From the NCBI GenBank assembly GCA_051294375.1, contig CM119265.1, positions 8,068,772 to 8,132,771 of the forward strand: a stretch of 64,000 bases of DNA, given 5' to 3'. Each line of letters begins with the position of its first letter. The first letter of the stretch is position 1. Both the position numbers and the translations under genes were made by a program. The stretch is from Paraspadella gotoi. Its lineage: Eukaryota > Animalia > Chaetognatha. Shown here in pieces: positions 1 through 58,450 of the stretch. Below the pieces are notes generated by a model. The model was not told where the DNA came from and did not search any database. It saw nothing but the letters and a program-made list of their open reading frames with translations.

Positions 1-2319
1 TCCTTACAGAGTAATTTTTTTTTCTTCGACTCGATAGTATATATATTATATAATATATATGCGACATTTGTTTTTTAAAAAAAACGATTTAATTTATTAC
101 ATGCAGTCAACACAAAAGCTTCTAATATTTAAGTTTAAACATTTTATGATGCTCTCGCAATTAGATTTGTCGAGATTTAATTTTTATTCGTTTTCTTTTT
201 CCCTTTTTCATTTTTTTTCTTTATAAAAAAAAATTAAAAAAATAAGAAAAATATCAAAACAGAAAAGAACAAGAAAACGGAAATAGAAAACGAAATGAAA
301 GAAGCAAAGAAAAAAAAAGAAAATAAAAGAGAGTCCCTAGTCGCAGTTCGGACTCTTTCTCCGCCGCCGCACCTGCCAATTCGCCCAGCCAAACCCTATC
401 TCTCCCCATCTGTCACCCCCATCTGTACCCCATCTCCCTACCCCCCATCTCTTTCGAAGCCAAAAAACTAATCAAATCTCATTCCTTCTTTCTTCCTTTT
501 CAGTGAATTCAATTCGTTGTTTCTCGTGTAAAATAAATATCCTTCAGTTTTTATATAAGTGTCGTAGATGTTGTAACGTTGTTGAAAAATCACATCTGCC
601 TATATTTGTCTACAAACGGACGTGTTTGTAAACAAAAGTACCAAAAAAAAAAACGTGAAAAAAAAAAACGAAAAGTGAAATAAAAAAGAATAAATCATCG
701 TGCTGACCCGTTTTCTTTGTCCGGCGAAAGAGAAGGAAGAAAATCGGGCGGCGGAGAAAAGAAAAACGCACATAAAAAGGAAACAAAAAGGTCAACGTTC
801 GCCCCACGACTCGCGTCACGAATCGCGCCACGAGTCGCGCCAATCCGCGCCAATCGTGGGTCATCGACTCTTCGTTTTCGTCTTGATTTCTCATTTCGTC
901 AACTCACAAACTGAAAACATAAAAAACACTCACTCACTCACAATCCAAATACAAAAAACAAATTCACTAACAAAAAACTCTTCCTTCATTTTTCGTCTCG
1001 TTCTCTATCTTCCTCTCTCTCTCTTTTTCTCTCTCTCACACACCCACACAAAAATTTACTCGTCGTCAATCGGAAACCAAAAAAGAACAAACTTTTTCGT
1101 CGCTTTCTCTTCGGTTCGACAGAGAGCGAGTCGTCAAGCAAAGAAACACAAATCGAGAAAAAATATCGGTTTTTAAAACTTTCGACTCTCTCTCTGTCTT
1201 TAGCTGTATATTTTTTTTCTTTCCCTCTCTAGCTCTATCTAGCTCCGTTTCTATCTGTCTCCTTCAAGTTCCCTAACATCGAAACGCCATCTACAGTGTT
1301 TTTGTTGTCTTCTCTGTTGACAAAAAAACCGAAAAAAACGAAACATCGCTTCCCCTTATCCCACAGAAAAATATAAACAAAACGAACGTTACATATCGAG
1401 TGCTTTGTTATAGTTTCGCCCGGTGCTAAAAATCCACAGCCAAGACGCGTGTACTTTTTAGCGACAGATGTCTCTCTGTCTCTGTCTGCGTATTTGGTAA
1501 CATCTACTCGTTGCGAGAGCGAGACGCGTGCGCGCGATAAAACCAGGCTCCTCCGAGAGAAAAATATCGAATTCGAAAAGGGGAGAGAGATTGTTTATGT
1601 TTATTATTTATTCCGACGAAAAAAAGATCACATATCACGAATTCATCTCGTCTCTCATTTCCTCTTTGAAAAAGTGAAAGAAAACAGCACATATCAGTTT
1701 AAAAAGAAAAATTCACCGACAGAACGAACCAAAAAATAATAATTTATTATTTTTAAACCCGTGAGAAATTATATATATTTATTGTTTATGAAAGAATTTT
1801 CCCCCTGGGATTTAAATCGGTTGACCGAAAAAACCTCCACTACGAAATTCGCACGCGAATACTATTTTTGCATCAATAAAAAAAATTAAAAATAGACTTA
1901 AAAACAAAAACTTAATACTTCGCGAGACATATCTCTATTATCGGCCTTAAAACGCCTCCGAAACAAACAAAACAAACAAAACAAAAACAAACGGTACCCA
2001 TAATCACTCAATCGATCGCCAATAAATCTTTCACTCTCTCTCTTTCTCGATCGAACCGCGCCGCCTGCGAGGCCCCGATCGAGCATAAAACAAGCAAGCT
2101 TGAATTTCTTTCTCCTTCTCTCGTTCGGCGAAAAAGAACCGGAAGAGAATTTTATACAAAAGGAGAGTGAAAATAGTCGCGAACTCAAATAGCGCTTTTG
2201 CCTTTGGACANNNNNNNNNNNNNNNNNNNNNNNNNCTCTCTCTCTCTCTCTCTCTATCTCCTCTCTCTCCTCCTCTCTCTCTCCTCTCTCTCTCTCTCCT
2301 CTCTTCCTCTCTCTCTCTT

Positions 2320-2980
2320 CACTTCTTCGGGTCCCTCCCTCACTTCCGATCGCCAAGCACTGGAAAGCCGTGACGGCTCGCCCGCTGCTCCGCCGATTCG
2401 CTTTCGGACTTTGGGAAGAGCTGCGGGACTCTGAGTCGGTGTACCGATCTGGCCGCCGCCGCTTGCTGTCGACTCACCCGCCTCACCCGCCAGATCGGTT
2501 TTCCCTTTTTGTCAGTTTTCCAGGAGCCAAGGTAGGGTATTTTGGGGTTCCGATCGACGACTCCACTCGCCCCCCGCCCTTCGCCGCCCGCCGGCCGTTG
2601 TACGCGTAAAAATTCCACCTCATTCTCCAACACTTTTTCAGCGGCCTGCCTGACGCCCCCACGCCGCAGCTGCACCCCGCCGCACCCAGCCGCCCCCTAG
2701 TGGATTCGCGCCGCCACCGCCGTCCCAGCCTCCAGCCCGCCGCCACGGCGCCTTTTTCCGCGGAAAGCCCCTACTACGCCATGCTGCTTGTTCGCTCTGC
2801 CCCGCCGACCCACGCTCCCCGGGCCACAATACGCGGGTGTCCCGCCCGCGCCTGCGGGAACGGGAAACCCCCCTTGGCGCCCGCACCACCCTGGCGCTCA
2901 CCCCCGCCACCTACGCTTGGGGTCTCCGGTCTCGGCCCACCTCGTCGATCCCAATCTGGCACTCTGTTCCGCCCATTCAG
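2320..2980 (+). CDS. Error-rich second copy of the Ala/Pro-rich exon, with extra 5' sequence
   Basis: Aligns to 7451-7837 with many insertions and has the same CAG|GT donor at 2981. Confidence 0.4.
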
Positions 2981-3021
2981 GTGATGAAGACAAGGATGGA
3001 GGGATGGTCTCTCCTCTCTCT

Positions 3022-3111
<90 letters not shown>

Positions 3112-3697
3112 TCATCATGTTCTAAATCTTTTTTTCTTCCCTTTCTAAAGGGCTGATGAGAATAAAAGATAAAATATTTCTCCTAATACACACATGACCG
3201 TTTATTATTCTTCGACCCCGCTCGGGATTTTATCATCGATTAAAACATGTTTGTATTTTATATCCAAACGAATCCAACTAAATGGTTTCGATTTTTTTAA
3301 GTCCAACAATCCAAATAAAATGTTTATTTTTTTCATCCAACTTTTTTCGATATCTCCTTATTCTTTTACGCGTTTAAAACATTCTGTTATTCCCTTTCTC
3401 TCAGTTTTGTGTGTGGGTTATGTACGCTGTGTTGTTGAGCTGTTGTTGTCTTAGTCTTTTTCTTTGTCTCTGTTTATTTTCTCTCCGAGAAAATTTTTTT
3501 TCGTGTCGAAATTCCTTTCGATTTATCATTTTATCAAAATACACGAGAGAAGGAAAATTTATTCGAAAATCGAGAGAGAGAGAAAAAAAATGGATTTAAA
3601 AGTTCTCTCTCTCTTTTTTTTTCAATTTTAATCTTCGATCTCAAACATCGACTAGAGATGAACGACTCAGTTCCAAGAGTCTCTTCTCTCTCTCTCT

Positions 3698-7224: not shown

Positions 7225-7450
7225 TTTATTCAAGGTAAGGGGAAAACGAAGTTGTTCGAAGAAGGCGCTCGAATGAAACCGAAATTGAAAGCGATTAAAA
7301 TATATCTTTTGACTTCCCGCAACCGGAAACTGTCCCTCGACGATAAAAAATTTGTTTTTTTAAATTAATAGGGAATATTAAAAGTATAATTTAATAAGTA
7401 GACGCGTACAGTGATTCGACAAGGTTACGTCCAAACATCTCCGACCTTTA

Positions 7451-7837
7451 CCGCCTCACCCGCAGATCGGTCAGGTCGCTCCCGCCGCCCTCGCCGCCGC
7501 CTGCGTTCCGCCTCATTCTCACTTCACGGCCGCCGCCGCCGCAGCTGCCGCCGCAGCCGCCGCCCAGGGATTCGGCGCCGCCACCGCCGTCCCAGCTCCA
7601 GCCGCCGCCACGGCGCCTTTTTCCGCGGAAGCCTACTACGCCATGCTGCTGTCGCGCCCGCCGCACGCCACGCCGCCCGGCGCCAACCACGTCGGGGGGT
7701 TCCCGCCCGCCGCCTGCGGGAACGGAAACCCCCTGGCGCCCGCCACCACCCTGGCGCTCACCCCCGCCACCACGCTGGGGTCTCCGGTCTCGGCCCACCT
7801 CGTCGATCCCAATCTGGCACTCTGTTCCGCCATTCAG
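7451..7837 (+). CDS. Ala/Pro-rich coding exon (5' part missing in this copy), unknown protein
   Basis: GC-rich open frame PPHPQIGQVAPAALAAACVPPHSHFTAAAAAAAAAAAAQGFG...EAYYAMLLSRPP...DPNLALCSAIQ ends at CAG|GTGAAG (donor at 7838), followed by a CT microsatellite. Confidence 0.55.
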
Positions 7838-8536
7838 GTGAAGACAGGATGGAGGGATGGGTCTCTCTCNNNNNNNNNNNNNNNNNNNNNNNNNNNNNNN
7901 NNNNNNNNNNNNNNNNNNNNNNNNNNNNNNNNNNNNNNNNNNNNNNNNNNNNNNNNNNNNNNNNNNNNNNNNNNNNNNNNNNNNNNNNNNNNNNNNNNNT
8001 CTCTCTCTCTCTCTCTTCATATTTCTAAATCTTTTTTTCTTCCCTTTCTAAAGGCTGGAGAATAAAAGATAAATATTTCTCCTAATACACACATAACCGT
8101 TTTTATTATTCTTTCGACCGCTCGGGATTTTATATCCGATAAAACATGTTTGTATTTTATCCAACGAATCCAACTAAATGGTTTCGATTTTTATCCAACA
8201 ATCGATAAAATGTTTATTTTTCATCCAACTTTTTCGATATCTCCTTATTCTTTTACGCGTTAAACATCTGTATTCCTCTTTCTCTCAAGTTTTGTGTGTA
8301 GGTTATGTACGCGTGTGTGAGTGTGTCTTTAGCTCTTTTTCTTTGTCTCTGTTTATTCTCTCCGAGATTTTTCGTGTCGATTCCTCGATTTATCATTTTA
8401 TCAAAATACACGAGAGAAGAAAATTTATCGAAATCGAGAGAGAGAAAAAAAAATGGAAAAAAGTTCTCTCTCTTTTTTTTTCAATTTTAATCTTCGATGT
8501 CAAACATCGACTAGAGATGAACGACTCAGTTCCAAG

Positions 8537-47217: not shown

Positions 47218-47624
47218 TCATCCGGCAGAAATCGCAAACGACCTCTCGGCGAAACCACTCTGCAAGTGTCGTCGGTTGCGTCGGTGGCTCCTTTTTAGGG
47301 ACAAATGACGAAGTTCGTTAAGATGGCGCTGGAGCGAGAGAGAACGCAGTTTCGAACAAAAGTGGGCGAGGTTTGAGCGGAAGGGGGTAAAGTTTGCACG
47401 GTGGTGAGGTGAGAATAGGGGACGGTGTTTGAGTGCGAAAGAATTGGCTTCGAGTGAAGAGGTTGTTCTGACTGGGGTCGAGACTTTAATTGGTGACTTC
47501 ATTTGGCGGTTGTTTTTTTTTTTTTTTTTTTGAAGGGCGAGAGTAACATTTTTTTCTGTGTTTTTCTCATGTGTTGTTTTTTTACATTTTTTTTTTTCTT
47601 ACGCTTCTCGAATCGAATTAGTTG

Positions 47625-47858
47625 TGTGGAAGACGATGTCGCGAGCAGTTTACCGTCCGTTGCACACAAGGTCCGAACTTCGGATCGGGCTGTAGTCCGA
47701 CACTACAGGTGGGTTAGACGCCCGTCCGCGTTTACTTGTGTGAATCAGCAGGGCGCGCGAACCCGATCCTTTGGGTTGGGAGGAGCTCTTGCTTCCTCCG
47801 GCGCCATAGTGCTGCTGATTCTCGGACGAGTAGTGGGGTATGAAATACTACCACTACA
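47625..47858 (-). repeat. 3' LTR of the miniature LTR element
   Basis: Preceded on the minus strand by the PPT. Differs from the other LTR mainly by small indels. Confidence 0.9.
47663..47742 (-). ncRNA. Twister ribozyme candidate (type P5) in 3' LTR
   Basis: Second copy of the same fold, one G shorter in P4 and in the P2 strand (possibly read errors). Predicted cleavage between 47716 and 47715. Confidence 0.7.
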
Positions 47859-47867
47859 CATCCCCCT
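47859..47867 (-). promoter_or_regulatory. Polypurine tract (PPT)
   Basis: AGGGGGATG abuts the 3' LTR on the minus strand. Confidence 0.7.
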
Positions 47868-48029
47868 AGGCATCACACACCCGCGACAAGTGTGATGGCT
47901 ATGATGCACGCGTTGTGCCGAGCACTCTAGGAGGGGCTGCCTATTCCTGCTCCCGTCTCACACACGATGGTCGAGGGCAGAGGTGTGTTAACATGCCCGG
48001 GCAGAGGTGTATTAACGTGCCAGCGTGTT

Positions 48030-48044
48030 CGTGTGGGCTCACCA
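48030..48044 (-). promoter_or_regulatory. Primer-binding site (PBS)
   Basis: TGGTGAGCCCACACG starts 1 nt after the 5' LTR end. TGG is complementary to the tRNA 3' CCA. The cognate tRNA cannot be assigned by eye. Confidence 0.7.
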
Positions 48045-48045
48045 A

Positions 48046-48278
48046 TGTGGAAGACGATGTCCGAGCAGTTTACCGTCCGTTGCACACAAGGTCCCGAACT
48101 TCGGATCGGGCTGTAGTCCGACACTACAGGTGGGTTAGACGCCCGTCCCGCCTTTACTTGTGTGAATCAGCAGGGGCGAACCCGAGTCCTTTGGGTTGGG
48201 AGGAGCTCTTGCTTCCTCCGGCGCATAAGTGCTGCTGATTCTCGGACGAGTAGTGGGGTATGAAATACTACCACTACA
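48046..48278 (-). repeat. 5' LTR of the miniature LTR element
   Basis: Reads TGTAG...CCACA on the minus strand, is followed by the PBS, and is near-identical to 47625-47858. Confidence 0.9.
48083..48164 (-). ncRNA. Twister ribozyme candidate, circularly permuted (type P5), in 5' LTR
   Basis: Minus-strand RNA: CACACAAG-UAAA-GGCGG-GACGG-GCGUC-UAA-CCC-AC-CUGUAGU(GUCGG)ACUACAG-CCCGA(UCCGAAGU)UCGGG-AC-CUUGUGUG. P5 is 8 bp, P3 7 bp, P4 5 bp. Conserved UAA, GA and L4 UCC.AAG motifs are present; pseudoknots CCG/CGG and AC/GU. Predicted cleavage U^A between 48137 and 48136. P2 is short and imperfect and P1 is minimal. Confidence 0.75.
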
Positions 48279-49517
48279 GTTGTCTCATTTCATCTAATAA
48301 AAAAATAATTTTCAGTTTTGTTTAAATAAAAAATATATCTTCGTTTTTTCCCAAAATCTCCCCCAATCTCTACCCCTTAGCCCCTCTCCCCGTCATAATC
48401 CCTCGAATGAAAGCCCCCCTCCCGAGTCAGATCATGCATAACGAGGCTTAAGGCGAGAAAAGTCTCCCTTCTGACCAAAGGGGTCGCCGACGATGTTTAG
48501 GGAGGATTAGCCGCCGATGCCGCGTCGCCAAACGTTCGTGAGGGGTTGGCCGGGGTCTTGAAGGATGGGTTCTGGGTGGGTAAGGGATGATGCGAGGTAG
48601 GGTTTGGTTCGACGGAGATATTTCTTTTTACTTTGGAAAAGTTGGGGGAATTTTTTTAGGACTCTCTCTATTCTGTGACTCAAGTCTGTGACTTGTGAAG
48701 GTTGAGGTTTTAATGGTTGGGGTATTCGGATTTATGTGAAAGTGTTTCGACGCCGTTATAAATCGATGGACTCACGCGTTATCACAGGAGATCCTCACGT
48801 GATTTGATCTAACTTTTTGTCATTTTCCTCGAATAAATTTCTCGTGATTCTCGATAACGCCATTCGAGATTGACTCGATTCTCCGAGGCGCGAAACCAGG
48901 AATGCCCGCGACGCGTGTCTCTCTGGCTTCGATTTCGCGCGAGAGGCCGTCGCCATCTTGGATTATTTGGGAAGGGAGAGGTTATAAGTACTTAAGTATG
49001 TATATGATACAAAAATTGAGAGAGTTTTATGTTTCTGTTTATATGTAAACATTGTTACATAGCTTGGTAATCGTTAGTTGACGTGAGTAATAAACAGATG
49101 CTAAGGCTACATACTCAAAGAGATTCAAAGGCAGTGACGTTGTAAAGTTGCAAAAAAGGGATTTGGGGTCAAAGGGTCCAATCAGAGGAGACATCGTCGA
49201 ATCCGATATGTTTATTGGTCATTTCCGTTCGTTTGATGAATTTTCGTCTCACGAAAAATTTAGATTCCGAGTTTTATGGTTTTTCCCGCGTCGAATGAGG
49301 AAAAAAAAAGGAGGAGGAAGAGGAGTAGTTGTGGGATAGGGGGTTTTTGATCGCAGCGTGGATGGCGGGGCTTGGTGGTTCCATGGTGGCTTGGGGGTTT
49401 CATGGTGGTCATAATCCGAACGCGCGAATCTATTGCGAGATTTATTGGAGATCGACGCTTCATCGTCAATGTTTCGCGAGGAAGTCCGCCAGCAATCTCG
49501 TCGAGCAGAGCTATATG

Positions 49518-56109: not shown

Positions 56110-58450
56110 TAACCGTTGTACAACTACTGTTTCAACTGCCGGCTGGTACCGCTCACGTAGATTTAGGCTCAGGTGTCCGTGTTCAAGGCATGCCGATTCT
56201 TGTATGTCGACTGAAGGATGATGAAGGTTAATTTGTGCGGTGCAGTTCTTTAGGCGCCACTTCGTGCACCAATCCTCTAATATCGTATTAGCCTTTTCAT
56301 ACGTATTTCTACCGATTTGCGGAATTATCCGCAAGTGGTCGCTGTGCTGCCTGGTCGTCCGCAACCTGGGCCGGTCTATTCCTTTGTCCCTCGACACACG
56401 TTAGTCGTAGTGTAAATATTGAAGAATGATACAGGAACTGTTATTACCCACCTGAGGGCGTGCCGGATGTTATTTTGAGAGGATTTGGATTTGCAGATGT
56501 GGACCAGAGTTTCAGATTGAGAAACGGCTTTGGTATTTGCGTAATCAAGCAAAAGAGAAGTTGGCTTAGTAATTCCTGTACATAATTTGGCATGAAGCAT
56601 TTCATTGAGAGGAGTTTTGTAAGGGCGAAAGGGCCATTGTCCACCAAGGGTTGGTACGAATGCGCATGTACGAGGTGGAGTCTGTGCACTCACTTCCATA
56701 GAAAACAGGCGCAAGACCGGTTTACGGATGCTTATCACCAAGTGTCATAGGAGCGACCATGGATGCAGAGCAATTTCCTTCTCACAGGAAAGACTTGGTG
56801 AGTAGTATATCTGTTGAGTATCCAGGAATAGGGGTGCTTGAGATAGGCGGCTGACTGCGATTTGTTGTAGGCCATGGGCTTGGAATTTGGTTGTCTCATT
56901 CCTTTTTGTCCAAATCTGGGCTGTTAATCCTGGTTTTGATTAGTACTTTCGAATACTTTGCCTATGCACGATGAGTAAACTAATTGGAAACGACTGATTT
57001 TTTGAATTACTTCAGGTTTTGAATATAATATATAGCACGAGATATAAAACTTAGACTCTTTGTTTCCACACTTTGGGGTAGAGGCCTTTTGCCAAGCAGA
57101 GATGTTGTAAGAATTAGAGGAGCTGCTGGAGGATGGGTAAGATCGGTAGTTGCTATAAGAGAGTAGTAAGGTGAACGGCGGCCGTCTTCTCGCCAGCTGC
57201 CGATTTATTTTTAGCATGCTACGTGAAATAGCTGCATCGAACCTCTTCACGAGAAGTTGGGGCTGTTTCTTGATCTCTTACGCATTTTCCAAAAGGATGT
57301 TGAAGCATCCGCTATTGTATCCCGAACGAGAAGTCGTTGCAATCCATTATCTTCCATTCGTGTCGAAGTTGGATCTAGACTCGGGTTGTAGACCTTTTCC
57401 AATCTCCAGCATGGGTCTCCGCTCTATCCTTGACTGTTACGCTAAGAATGTCCGTCGCTCTTCAACAAGGGCTGGGAAGCGCAATCTGGCGATTGTTTTT
57501 ATATTCAGCTATCTTTAGATAATCTGTAGCATTTCATCTCGGGCCTGCAAAGTATTTGCCATAAGTATCTAACCTTTCTTCCAGTGTTCTGTCTATCTCT
57601 CTGAGGTCTCTTTTTTCAATTCGAGTGAAGATTTTATATATAAAAGTTTGCGTAGAACCGTTCATTGAGGAACCTTCTTTTTCCTCCAAACATGCAATTA
57701 TCTCTTAATCCCAGGAGTAGATTGGACTCTTTCGATAATCTTAATTGATTGCCCTGTTCGCCCGTGTGGCTTTTACGGTTGTTGGAGATTTCGAAGAACT
57801 TGCATTACTGTCTGAAGCGAAATTCTCATGCCATTTGGGTTTACGTATTTCTTTGTGTGCTATCGTTCTTCAGTCAGAGGGTATAGTGATTCTCCTTAAC
57901 TCAACAGTCTCCCCGAATTTCCTTGCCAATCTGTGAACTTTCTTGTTGCCTCTGCTTCTGCCTCTATAAGGCTTAATTATCACTGTAATGTGTGGGGGAC
58001 GGTGGTCGCTTATGTATTTACGGATTTTGTACTCCATTCTTTAAATGATCGTCGGTAACAAAAGGATTTTTCATATGCATAAGCTGAAGTCTAGGCTCCA
58101 CTTCTAAGACATCGCTCGAAAGCTGAAAAAGATTGGCTCACTGTATTTCAGGCATATGAGATGAAAGATGATTGCCAACATCGAGGTCTTCCAGATGTTT
58201 CTACGCTTCGGTGTTCGAGATTAGCTCTCTAAGTATGATAGGTTGGCGTTAATATCGAGATATGATACCTGAAATTTCTGTACCTCATGGAGATACAATA
58301 ATCGAAAAAGTTTGTTTGGGTGCTCTAATGACCTGGATAGAATGTATATTTGGTGGAAACTGTAATTATACGCTAGCGACTAGCTCTGACGAAAAAAGGT
58401 CAGAGGTTTTTTTAATATAATTCTTTCGACCGAGAGGGACGGGCATGTAA
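56110..58450 (-). mobile_element. Degenerate non-LTR retrotransposon (LINE) ORF2: APE endonuclease plus reverse transcriptase
   Basis: Minus-strand motifs in canonical order: LDINAN (GDFNA-like, ~58245), ISDHRP (~58005), RPIS..PIPG (~56840, frameshifted), SGTPQ..FNIY (~56460-56410), QVADD (YADD-like, ~56355), LEDWCTKWRLK (~56270). Many frameshifts and stops. Confidence 0.85.

Follow-up and report, generated by a model that had tools for sequence, protein, structure and literature searches.

A twister-like fold in both long terminal repeats of a 654-bp non-coding element: a candidate twister-based LTR retrozyme

Retrozymes are still divided into plant elements with long terminal repeats (LTRs) and type III hammerhead ribozymes, and animal elements of non-LTR type with type I hammerheads (preprint 10.64898/2026.07.22.740005; PMC11722881). 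For the plant elements a circular RNA has been proposed as the template of a helper reverse transcriptase, giving full, multimeric or solo-LTR copies (PMC4918200). Twisters are carried by RNA viruses (PMC13725137) and by the Perere-3 T-variants of Schistosoma, 1.6% of which have an LTR reverse transcriptase domain at most 10 kb downstream; the part of PMC8501958 drawn on here does not report these as part of an LTR, and that of PMC10085705 reports no new twister permutations. [quoted passage not shown] A literature search covering few subscription journals and no supplements found no LTR twister, animal LTR retrozyme or natural dimeric twister. Here we describe a small element on the minus strand of a 64,000-nucleotide stretch of contig CM119265.1 (the window, meaning the whole stretch of DNA analysed), both LTRs of which contain a twister-like motif. 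Our best reading overall, to which we give a rough probability of 0.57, is that of a twister-based LTR retrozyme whose 421-nt unit is circularized and copied by a helper belonging to the CsRn1 clade of Ty3/Gypsy elements.

The element runs from 48278 to 47625 on the minus strand (654 bp) and consists of a 5′ LTR, an internal region of 187 bp and a 3′ LTR. Its anatomy is as first described from the sequence, namely that of a protein-free element with LTRs, a primer-binding site (PBS), a polypurine tract (PPT) and a GTTG target-site duplication (TSD):

47621–47624, plus strand: left copy of the TSD, GTTG
47625–47858, minus strand: 3′ LTR, 234 bp, TGT...ACA
47859–48045, minus strand: internal region, 187 bp, non-coding
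47861–47867, minus strand: PPT, AGGGGGA, 2 nt ahead of the 3′ LTR
48035–48044, minus strand: PBS, TGGTGAGCCC, beginning 1 nt past the 5′ LTR, at 48044
48046–48278, minus strand: 5′ LTR, 233 bp, TGT...ACA
48279–48282, plus strand: right copy of the TSD, GTTG

The two LTRs are 95% identical, differing in 11 of 237 alignment columns (four substitutions and seven gap columns), and the presence of GTTG on both sides has a chance probability of about 0.004. Across both strands of the window, the PBS is the sole TGGTGA[GC]CCC. It equals the first 10 of the 12 positions published for the CsRn1 clade of trematodes and mosquitoes, TGGTGA(G/C)CCCG(T/A), a complement of tRNA-Trp that is accompanied by 4-bp TSDs (PMC2582038; PMC3630058 agrees on these features). 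The longest frame with an ATG on the sense strand encodes 42 amino acids, and a stop-free frame of 122 amino acids on the opposite strand has no Pfam match. Measured against the definition of TRIMs given for bivalves (PMC6934838), the element is shorter than 1 kb, non-coding, bounded by terminal repeats of 100–250 bp and a TSD, equipped with PBS and PPT, and represented by dispersed copies and solo repeats. It is almost certainly a non-autonomous miniature LTR retrotransposon of this kind.

The LTR sense strand contains no TTTT, TATA, AATAAA or ATTAAA word. ARAGORN found no tRNA in the element, which has no A-box word and a single imperfect B-box-like word, though a degenerate tRNA could escape this search; the B-box-like word (GTTCG without the next A) lies at 48173–48183 on the minus strand, immediately upstream of the twister-type motif. 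Between PBS and PPT, the internal region carries a 23-bp tandem direct repeat (47975–47997 and 47999–48021, 91% alike), at which one contig each in two of the public runs considered below (X1 and X4) skips 32 bases. No second copy of the element occurs within the 64-kb window, and a plasmid collection gave no match.

The twister-type motif lies in the element's sense orientation and has the strand order of the P5 permutation. Its parts in the 5′ LTR, and its counterpart in the 3′ LTR, are as follows, the cut site being placed by the twister UAA rule (PMC8501958):

48083–48164, minus strand: twister-type motif of the 5′ LTR, P5 permutation
48164–48157 with 48090–48083, minus strand: P5, 8 bp
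48151–48148, minus strand: P2 3′ strand, preceded by the UAAA linker
48147–48143, minus strand: GACGG, with G48147 as predicted general base
48138–48142, minus strand: P1 linker, 5 nt
48137–48135, minus strand: UAA
48136–48137, minus strand: predicted cut site U^A, 141 nt into the 5′ LTR
48134–48132, minus strand: P2 5′ strand, 3 nt
48131–48130 with 48099–48098, minus strand: T2, AC with GU
48129–48123 with 48117–48111, minus strand: P3, 7 bp
48110–48106 with 48097–48093, minus strand: P4, 5 bp
48105–48098, minus strand: loop L4, UCCGAAGU
48104–48102 with 48145–48143, minus strand: T1, CCG with CGG
47663–47742, minus strand: second twister-type motif, in the 3′ LTR, predicted to be cut after U47716

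The core of the 5′ LTR motif lies at 48164–48083, where the original prediction placed it, and its drawn helices and both pseudoknots are Watson–Crick throughout (P5 8/8, P3 7/7, P4 5/5, T1 3/3, T2 2/2), with mean pair probabilities of 0.98 for P4, 0.85 for P3 and 0.98 for P5. The conserved letters GANGG, UAA, RC and UCCNAAGY appear in P5 order at 18 of 18 positions in both LTRs, and T1 and T2 are likewise intact in both. Compared with the Rfam consensus (CCC/GGG and GC/GC), T1 (CCG/CGG) and T2 (AC/GU) are changed on both sides with the pairing kept. The motif is embedded in the fold of the LTR, whose long stem is prolonged by P5; the 5′ LTR folds better than its shuffles (z −2.46), 4 of 200 of which are equally good. 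A second GACGG downstream, at 48078–48074, was tried as the catalytic strand of a P1-order twister and rejected, having no P1 partner and no GANGG ahead of the P1 strand; this stretch pairs with 48249–48243 in the LTR fold.

Natural twisters with the same core were found among phage loci. Twelve phage loci retrieved by pattern served as a positive control, and six of them passed the Twister-P5 model (RF02684). One of the loci examined, L270, has the variant core of the window motif, a 3-nt P2 strand and full P1–P4, and scores 44.2 bits (cut-off 37.6). Another, L562, combines that core, arranged in P1 order, with a P1 of 11 bp and scores 20.6 bits (E 0.11), while L096, also with a 3-nt P2 strand, reaches 52.2 bits. 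Since L270 and L562 carry the core of the window motif, this core is a natural twister variant; and since L562 has all core letters at 20.6 bits against a cut-off of 67.2, the Rfam twister-P1 model misses the variant-core subtype. The two variant-core twisters lie at 77–155 (plus strand) of L270 and 47–105 (minus strand) of L562, both with a 3-nt P2 strand, T2 as AC/GU and T1 as CCG/CGG. Among the matches listed, the P5 order yields the variant in one viral locus of 107 and the P1 order in one of 120, with none convincing among the 120 loci listed in P3 order and none among the 120 prokaryote loci listed. Two scans anchored on UAAA gave none convincing among 98 loci listed and no match, respectively. 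P3 and P4 beside the same core letters occur only in L270 among the 227 letter-matched loci listed.

A descriptor requiring the core letters, both pseudoknots, P4 and two pairs of P2 has one match in the window, the 5′ LTR motif, and none in 2 × 24 Mb of Markov background, and arithmetic puts the chance of all helices occurring together at about 2e-4 over 250,000 windows. We conclude that the LTR motif is very probably a twister homologue. In view of its weak P2, a competing fold, the damaged 3′ copy and the missing cis P1, it is termed twister-like and is not filed in RF02684. The opposite strand of the P4 hairpin (48098–48105, plus strand) contains a C(UUCG)G tetraloop word; an 18-mer of the hairpin is found in at least 120 unrelated metagenome contigs, and these are chance matches only, of 19–31 nt.

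Part of the stretch is contained in nine public runs from three studies of one organism. Contigs from 4 of the 11 runs listed (X1, X2, X4 and X9) were aligned to the internal region, the 5′ LTR and the flank, giving 647, 218, 887 and 73 aligned contigs, respectively. The data are assembled contigs; none of the listed runs is recorded as RNA, and RNA status for X9 is a guess. At the LTR start (48278), 33, 14, 32 and 4 contigs have loose ends leading into unlike AT-rich flanks, and 30, 12 and 29 contigs end loosely near the other LTR end. The element thus belongs to a high-copy family, as had been anticipated. [quoted passage not shown] Independent data therefore contain both LTR–internal junctions and show that assembly did not make two LTRs out of one sequence, a danger that the original prediction had itself thought small. 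Depth at the junction is 14–52 times single-copy depth and LTR depth 7–129 times that at the junction; these ratios are rough and measure depth rather than copy number, and they suggest some tens of full elements and many solo LTRs.

The window copy departs from the bulk of the contigs at several places, some of them common to both LTRs (48209, 48214), and the G run of the PPT is two bases longer in contigs of the three DNA runs; the window copy thus has private changes, homopolymer errors or both. Cover of the element and of the PPT-to-LTR joint by X9 says nothing firm on transcription or circles, and the absence of cover of the flank in X2 and X9 proves nothing. A divergent variant of the internal region, spanning 47887–48090, makes up 87 of 156 depth in X9 and 25 of 560 in X2 and is absent from X1 and X4. 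X9 also has a tenfold depth peak at 48182–48219. The majority letters beside 48278 in the three DNA runs are ATAT, ATAC and ATAT (agreement 0.43–0.47), perhaps reflecting a weak preference for AT-rich targets; the TSD of the window copy is itself GTTG.

The common variants among the rows listed fall outside the core. Base 48121 in the P3 loop is variable in 25–69% of contig depth, the core positions 48102 and 48136 in 1–4% of the depth of the DNA runs, and the common variants at 48075, 48079 and 48254 retain their pair as G–U in the predicted LTR fold.

Two points were absent from the original prediction: the CsRn1-type Trp PBS described above, and a self-complementary linker in the place of P1. 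The linker is 5 nt long in both window LTRs and one base longer, reading GGCGUC, in 64, 65, 64 and 84% of spanning contig depth in the four runs. The hexamer is self-complementary, at −6.3 kcal/mol versus −2.7 for the 5-mer of the window, and 6–8 linker pairs are possible between two copies of the motif. In the minimum-energy fold of the exact element, the linkers of the two LTRs pair with each other and the P5 strands are swapped, forming a symmetrical double twister; the probability of the linker duplex is 0.74–0.79 and that of the swapped P5 about 0.8. Since direct repeats in general would be expected to swap helices, specificity lies in the linker duplex only. From these folds, P1 may form between the two LTRs. 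That such pairing might be needed, or strongly helpful, for cutting is a tentative suggestion that we hold with less than even confidence. Known twisters cleave inefficiently when P1 is missing (PMC8501958; PMC6154101), so a single motif may also cut on its own.

The proposed cycle begins with a transcript that the twister-type folds would cut in both LTRs, after U48137 and U47716, freeing one unit:

47716–48136, minus strand: predicted 421-nt unit between the cut sites, 57% G+C

This unit would lack a terminal repeat and retain one LTR, the PBS and the PPT. In circular form, 65% of it is predicted to be paired (z −2.66), with 0 of 100 shuffles equally good. It would be ligated into a circle and then likely copied back into DNA by the reverse transcriptase of a CsRn1-clade Ty3/Gypsy helper. 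Members of the family probably cleave; by analogy with the plant elements, a circular template for transposition is somewhat favoured. A requirement for two motifs would leave circles and solo LTRs uncut. The PBS, the 4-bp TSD and the TGT...ACA ends all match the CsRn1 clade, and so point to a helper of CsRn1 type and to an animal host, both of which are likely on sequence grounds; the Gypsy-type helper originally presumed is thereby supported. In the window, none of 138 frames (136 of the 193 filtered, plus two added) matches Pfam at its cut-off, and five hits are weak and below it; neither Pfam nor protein searches or an Atlas look-up gave any frame a host lineage. The fullest version of the scenario would make this the first animal LTR retrozyme and also the first to rely on a twister: a CsRn1 satellite with a strand-swapping double twister active solely on contact of two copies, a 421-nt circle shielded from re-cutting, and solo LTRs harmless to host transcripts. 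Taken as a whole, it is doubtful.

Several results weigh against a functional twister, beginning with the significant model score that the original prediction had chosen as one of its own tests of refutation, which neither Rfam nor two covariance models built for this study (R1 and R2) produced. Rfam returned no match on the whole window at curated cut-offs (RF02684, RF03160 and RF03154 included) and no twister match on queries of 1101 and 92 bases with E up to 10. R1, made from four canonical phage twisters, ranks the LTR motifs first and third of seven, in the wrong register and without significance (E 1.6 and 3.6); R2, made from seven and restricted to the stretch from UAA to P4, ranks them second and third of eight (7.1 bits, E 1.4), again non-significant. 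The descriptor was composed after the motif had been seen, and the 3′ LTR motif fails it. In structure, P2 has a 5′ strand of 3 nt with two stacked pairs and a third across a bulge, versus 4 bp in the consensus; the linker permits at most one pair in cis, short of the 2 bp or more that an intramotif P1 requires; and in the 3′ LTR copy P2 is broken and P4 is shorter by one pair. The original prediction did not mention the lack of P1 in cis, the bulged P2 or the damage to the 3′ copy. The nested fold gives the active register a probability of 0.0, and a fold that pairs the catalytic G lies 5.6 kcal/mol below the nested part of the twister (pseudoknots counted in neither case). The first P2 pair (48148) is broken in 3–7% of DNA depth and 20% in X9, and no compensating change within the family is seen among the variant rows listed, the full table holding 11 further ones. 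As for pairing between LTRs, 216 of 4096 hexamers are self-complementary by chance, 141 of them as stable as GGCGUC; the 5-nt linker of the window must borrow one T1 base to form a duplex; and the inter-LTR fold hinges on the ends of the transcript, with linker duplex probabilities of 0.01, 0.95, 0.27 and 0.0 for four other boundaries.

The lack of a score may be understood from the models. Twister-P5 includes an 8-bp P1 and lacks P3, the reverse of the window motif with its 7-bp P3 and absent P1; we infer that the missing P1 and the changed pseudoknots cannot be scored by these models, which would account for the missing score. The alignment boundaries of R2 are right for both LTR motifs, from the predicted cut site to P4. 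With R2, the controls L096, L270 and L562 reach 20, 15.2 and 12 bits, and chance matches of up to 9.4 bits occur in 30 of 120 metagenome loci. The 1101- and 92-base queries each gave a single Rfam match, BjrC68; with 12.9 bits where the cut-off is 39, it was rejected. When E was relaxed to 0.5, Rfam matched the window 16 times, always below cut-off and never at the element, and the three displayed alignments fall on CT/AG repeats.

The same weaknesses (no cis P1, weak P2, competing fold, no significant score) would suit a true twister by descent that is now an inactive passenger, captured by the LTR from, for instance, the end of a Penelope-like element or the beginning of an RTE element, with the family moving as an ordinary TRIM via linear RNA with R repeats. 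Twisters are known from RTE elements (PMC8501958; PMC7761336), 8 of 9 predicted hammerhead retrozyme dimers failed to cut (preprint 10.64898/2026.07.22.740005), and low variation in a recently expanded family is no proof of selection. Against this, the core letters and both pseudoknots are kept in most contig depth while the P3 loop varies, P5 makes the motif integral to the LTR fold, and a self-complementary linker lies exactly at the place of P1. We consider this explanation unlikely.

Inefficient cutting without P1, noted above, leaves room for a twister that cuts slowly as a single motif and merely trims RNA ends, either to release the element from host transcripts that read through it or in place of polyadenylation, with uncut or once-cut linear RNA as the template. 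The lack of TATA, AATAAA and ATTAAA on the LTR sense strand fits such a role, which has also been proposed for the Perere-3 twisters, and no circle was seen in the data analysed. Against it, the motif is present in both LTRs, and full cutting would drop the R repeat and leave one unit, the very situation that plant retrozymes solve by circles; moreover, the 421-nt unit folds well as a circle. The excess of LTR depth over internal depth fits solo LTRs arising from a circle, although recombination would serve as well. Weighing these points, we give end-trimming only a small chance of being the whole account. That the motif is a chance match in a hairpin-rich LTR of an ordinary TRIM devoid of ribozyme ancestry is very improbable. 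In favour of chance are the lack of a significant score, structure along the whole LTR, the frequency of letters-only matches in large collections and the roughly 56 loose matches that arithmetic predicts for a scan of this size. Against it, the core letters, five ordered helical elements, two compensated pseudoknots and the UAAA linker all occur together, and the Rfam-positive phage twister L270 has the same three departures from consensus.

Elsewhere in the window, kilobase blocks occur twice at 83–89% identity, some of them inverted: 3095–4685/8000–9422, 4722–5851/11947–13048, 5987–7449/10539–11964, 13048–14052/14704–15745, 41673–42905/44560–45828 and 43688–44246/46591–47218. There are 22 runs of N, totalling 4650 bases. 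Together, the blocks and N runs resemble a side-by-side assembly of noisy reads, or else duplications of local origin. Two stop-free, G+C-rich frames in a duplicated block, 7415–7864 and 2701–3153 (both plus strand), are rich in Ala and Pro and exon-like; neither has a Pfam match or, in a protein search, a longer homologue. A 97-aa frame at 56110–56400 (minus strand) may resemble the end of a reverse transcriptase of a long interspersed nuclear element, and Pfam, a protein search and Atlas lend this no support.

If the twister-based retrozyme reading is true, the strategy of cutting, circularizing and reverse-transcribing would have arisen once more, in a different Gypsy lineage and with a ribozyme of a different class; end chemistry, rather than the hammerhead, would then be what it depends on. 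Twisters would gain a second defined job, the genome a small source of viroid-like circles, and a twister that needs another copy for its completion would act as a natural sensor of two copies. Since a motif lacking P1 scores nothing in Rfam, more of them may hide in TRIM and solo-LTR libraries.

The motif shares with type-P5 twisters (RF02684, clan CL00120) the strand order, GANGG, UAA, the L4 sequence UCCNAAGY, T1 and T2, and P4. It differs in having no P1 hairpin, a P3, a bulged 3-nt P2 and an 8-bp closing P5, and it falls below every Rfam threshold. Its UAAA linker is that of the twister-P1 consensus and of Table 1 of PMC8501958, and its 3-nt P2 strand is shared with the Rfam-positive L270 and L096. 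The Perere-3 T-variants (PMC8501958) offer an animal retroelement twister with a relaxed P1, a P3 beginning CUGUAG and the UAAA linker; they are, in contrast, of P1 type, placed singly at the 5′ end of a non-LTR element of the RTE type, and without PBS or PPT. A too-short helix that bears a palindromic loop and is made complete by another copy within one transcript recalls the dimeric hammerheads of Penelope-like elements and a newt satellite (PMC6765202), which belong to another ribozyme class and other elements and whose cleavage as dimers is established, where that of the present motif is predicted.

In size and layout (shorter than 1 kb, LTRs of 100–250 bp, PBS, PPT), the element resembles the animal TRIMs Helenus and Ajax (Kojima 2024, PMC10886601) and those of bivalves (PMC6934838). 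It further shares the 4-bp TSD with animal Helenus and a small-RNA module captured inside the LTR with these TRIMs, though the module here is a ribozyme fold and not a tRNA or 5S promoter, and the A and B boxes are not both present. The tRNA-Trp PBS (10 of 12 positions), 4-bp TSD and TGT...ACA ends are those of the CsRn1 clade (PMC2582038; PMC3630058), the elements of which, unlike this one, encode gag and pol; it would thus rely on a helper.

The plant LTR retrozymes (PMC4918200) are matched in the non-coding body, the same position of the ribozyme motif in both LTRs, PBS, PPT, 4-bp TSD, solo LTRs, Gypsy-type helper and one-unit RNA between the cut sites. The likeness drawn in the original prediction holds for this layout, the PBS being of Trp type here and tRNA-Met type in plants (PMC7761336). 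The element is also smaller, with an LTR of 233 versus 300–400 bp and a unit of 421 versus about 600–1000 nt. In place of the type III hammerhead it has a twister-type fold; neither strand contains CUGANGA, and Rfam gave no hammerhead match. Cleavage and circles are established for the plant elements and are predicted from sequence in this case, and the host is probably not a plant. With a Trp PBS and no hammerhead, the element stands outside the plant LTR retrozymes, but is laid out to work alike.

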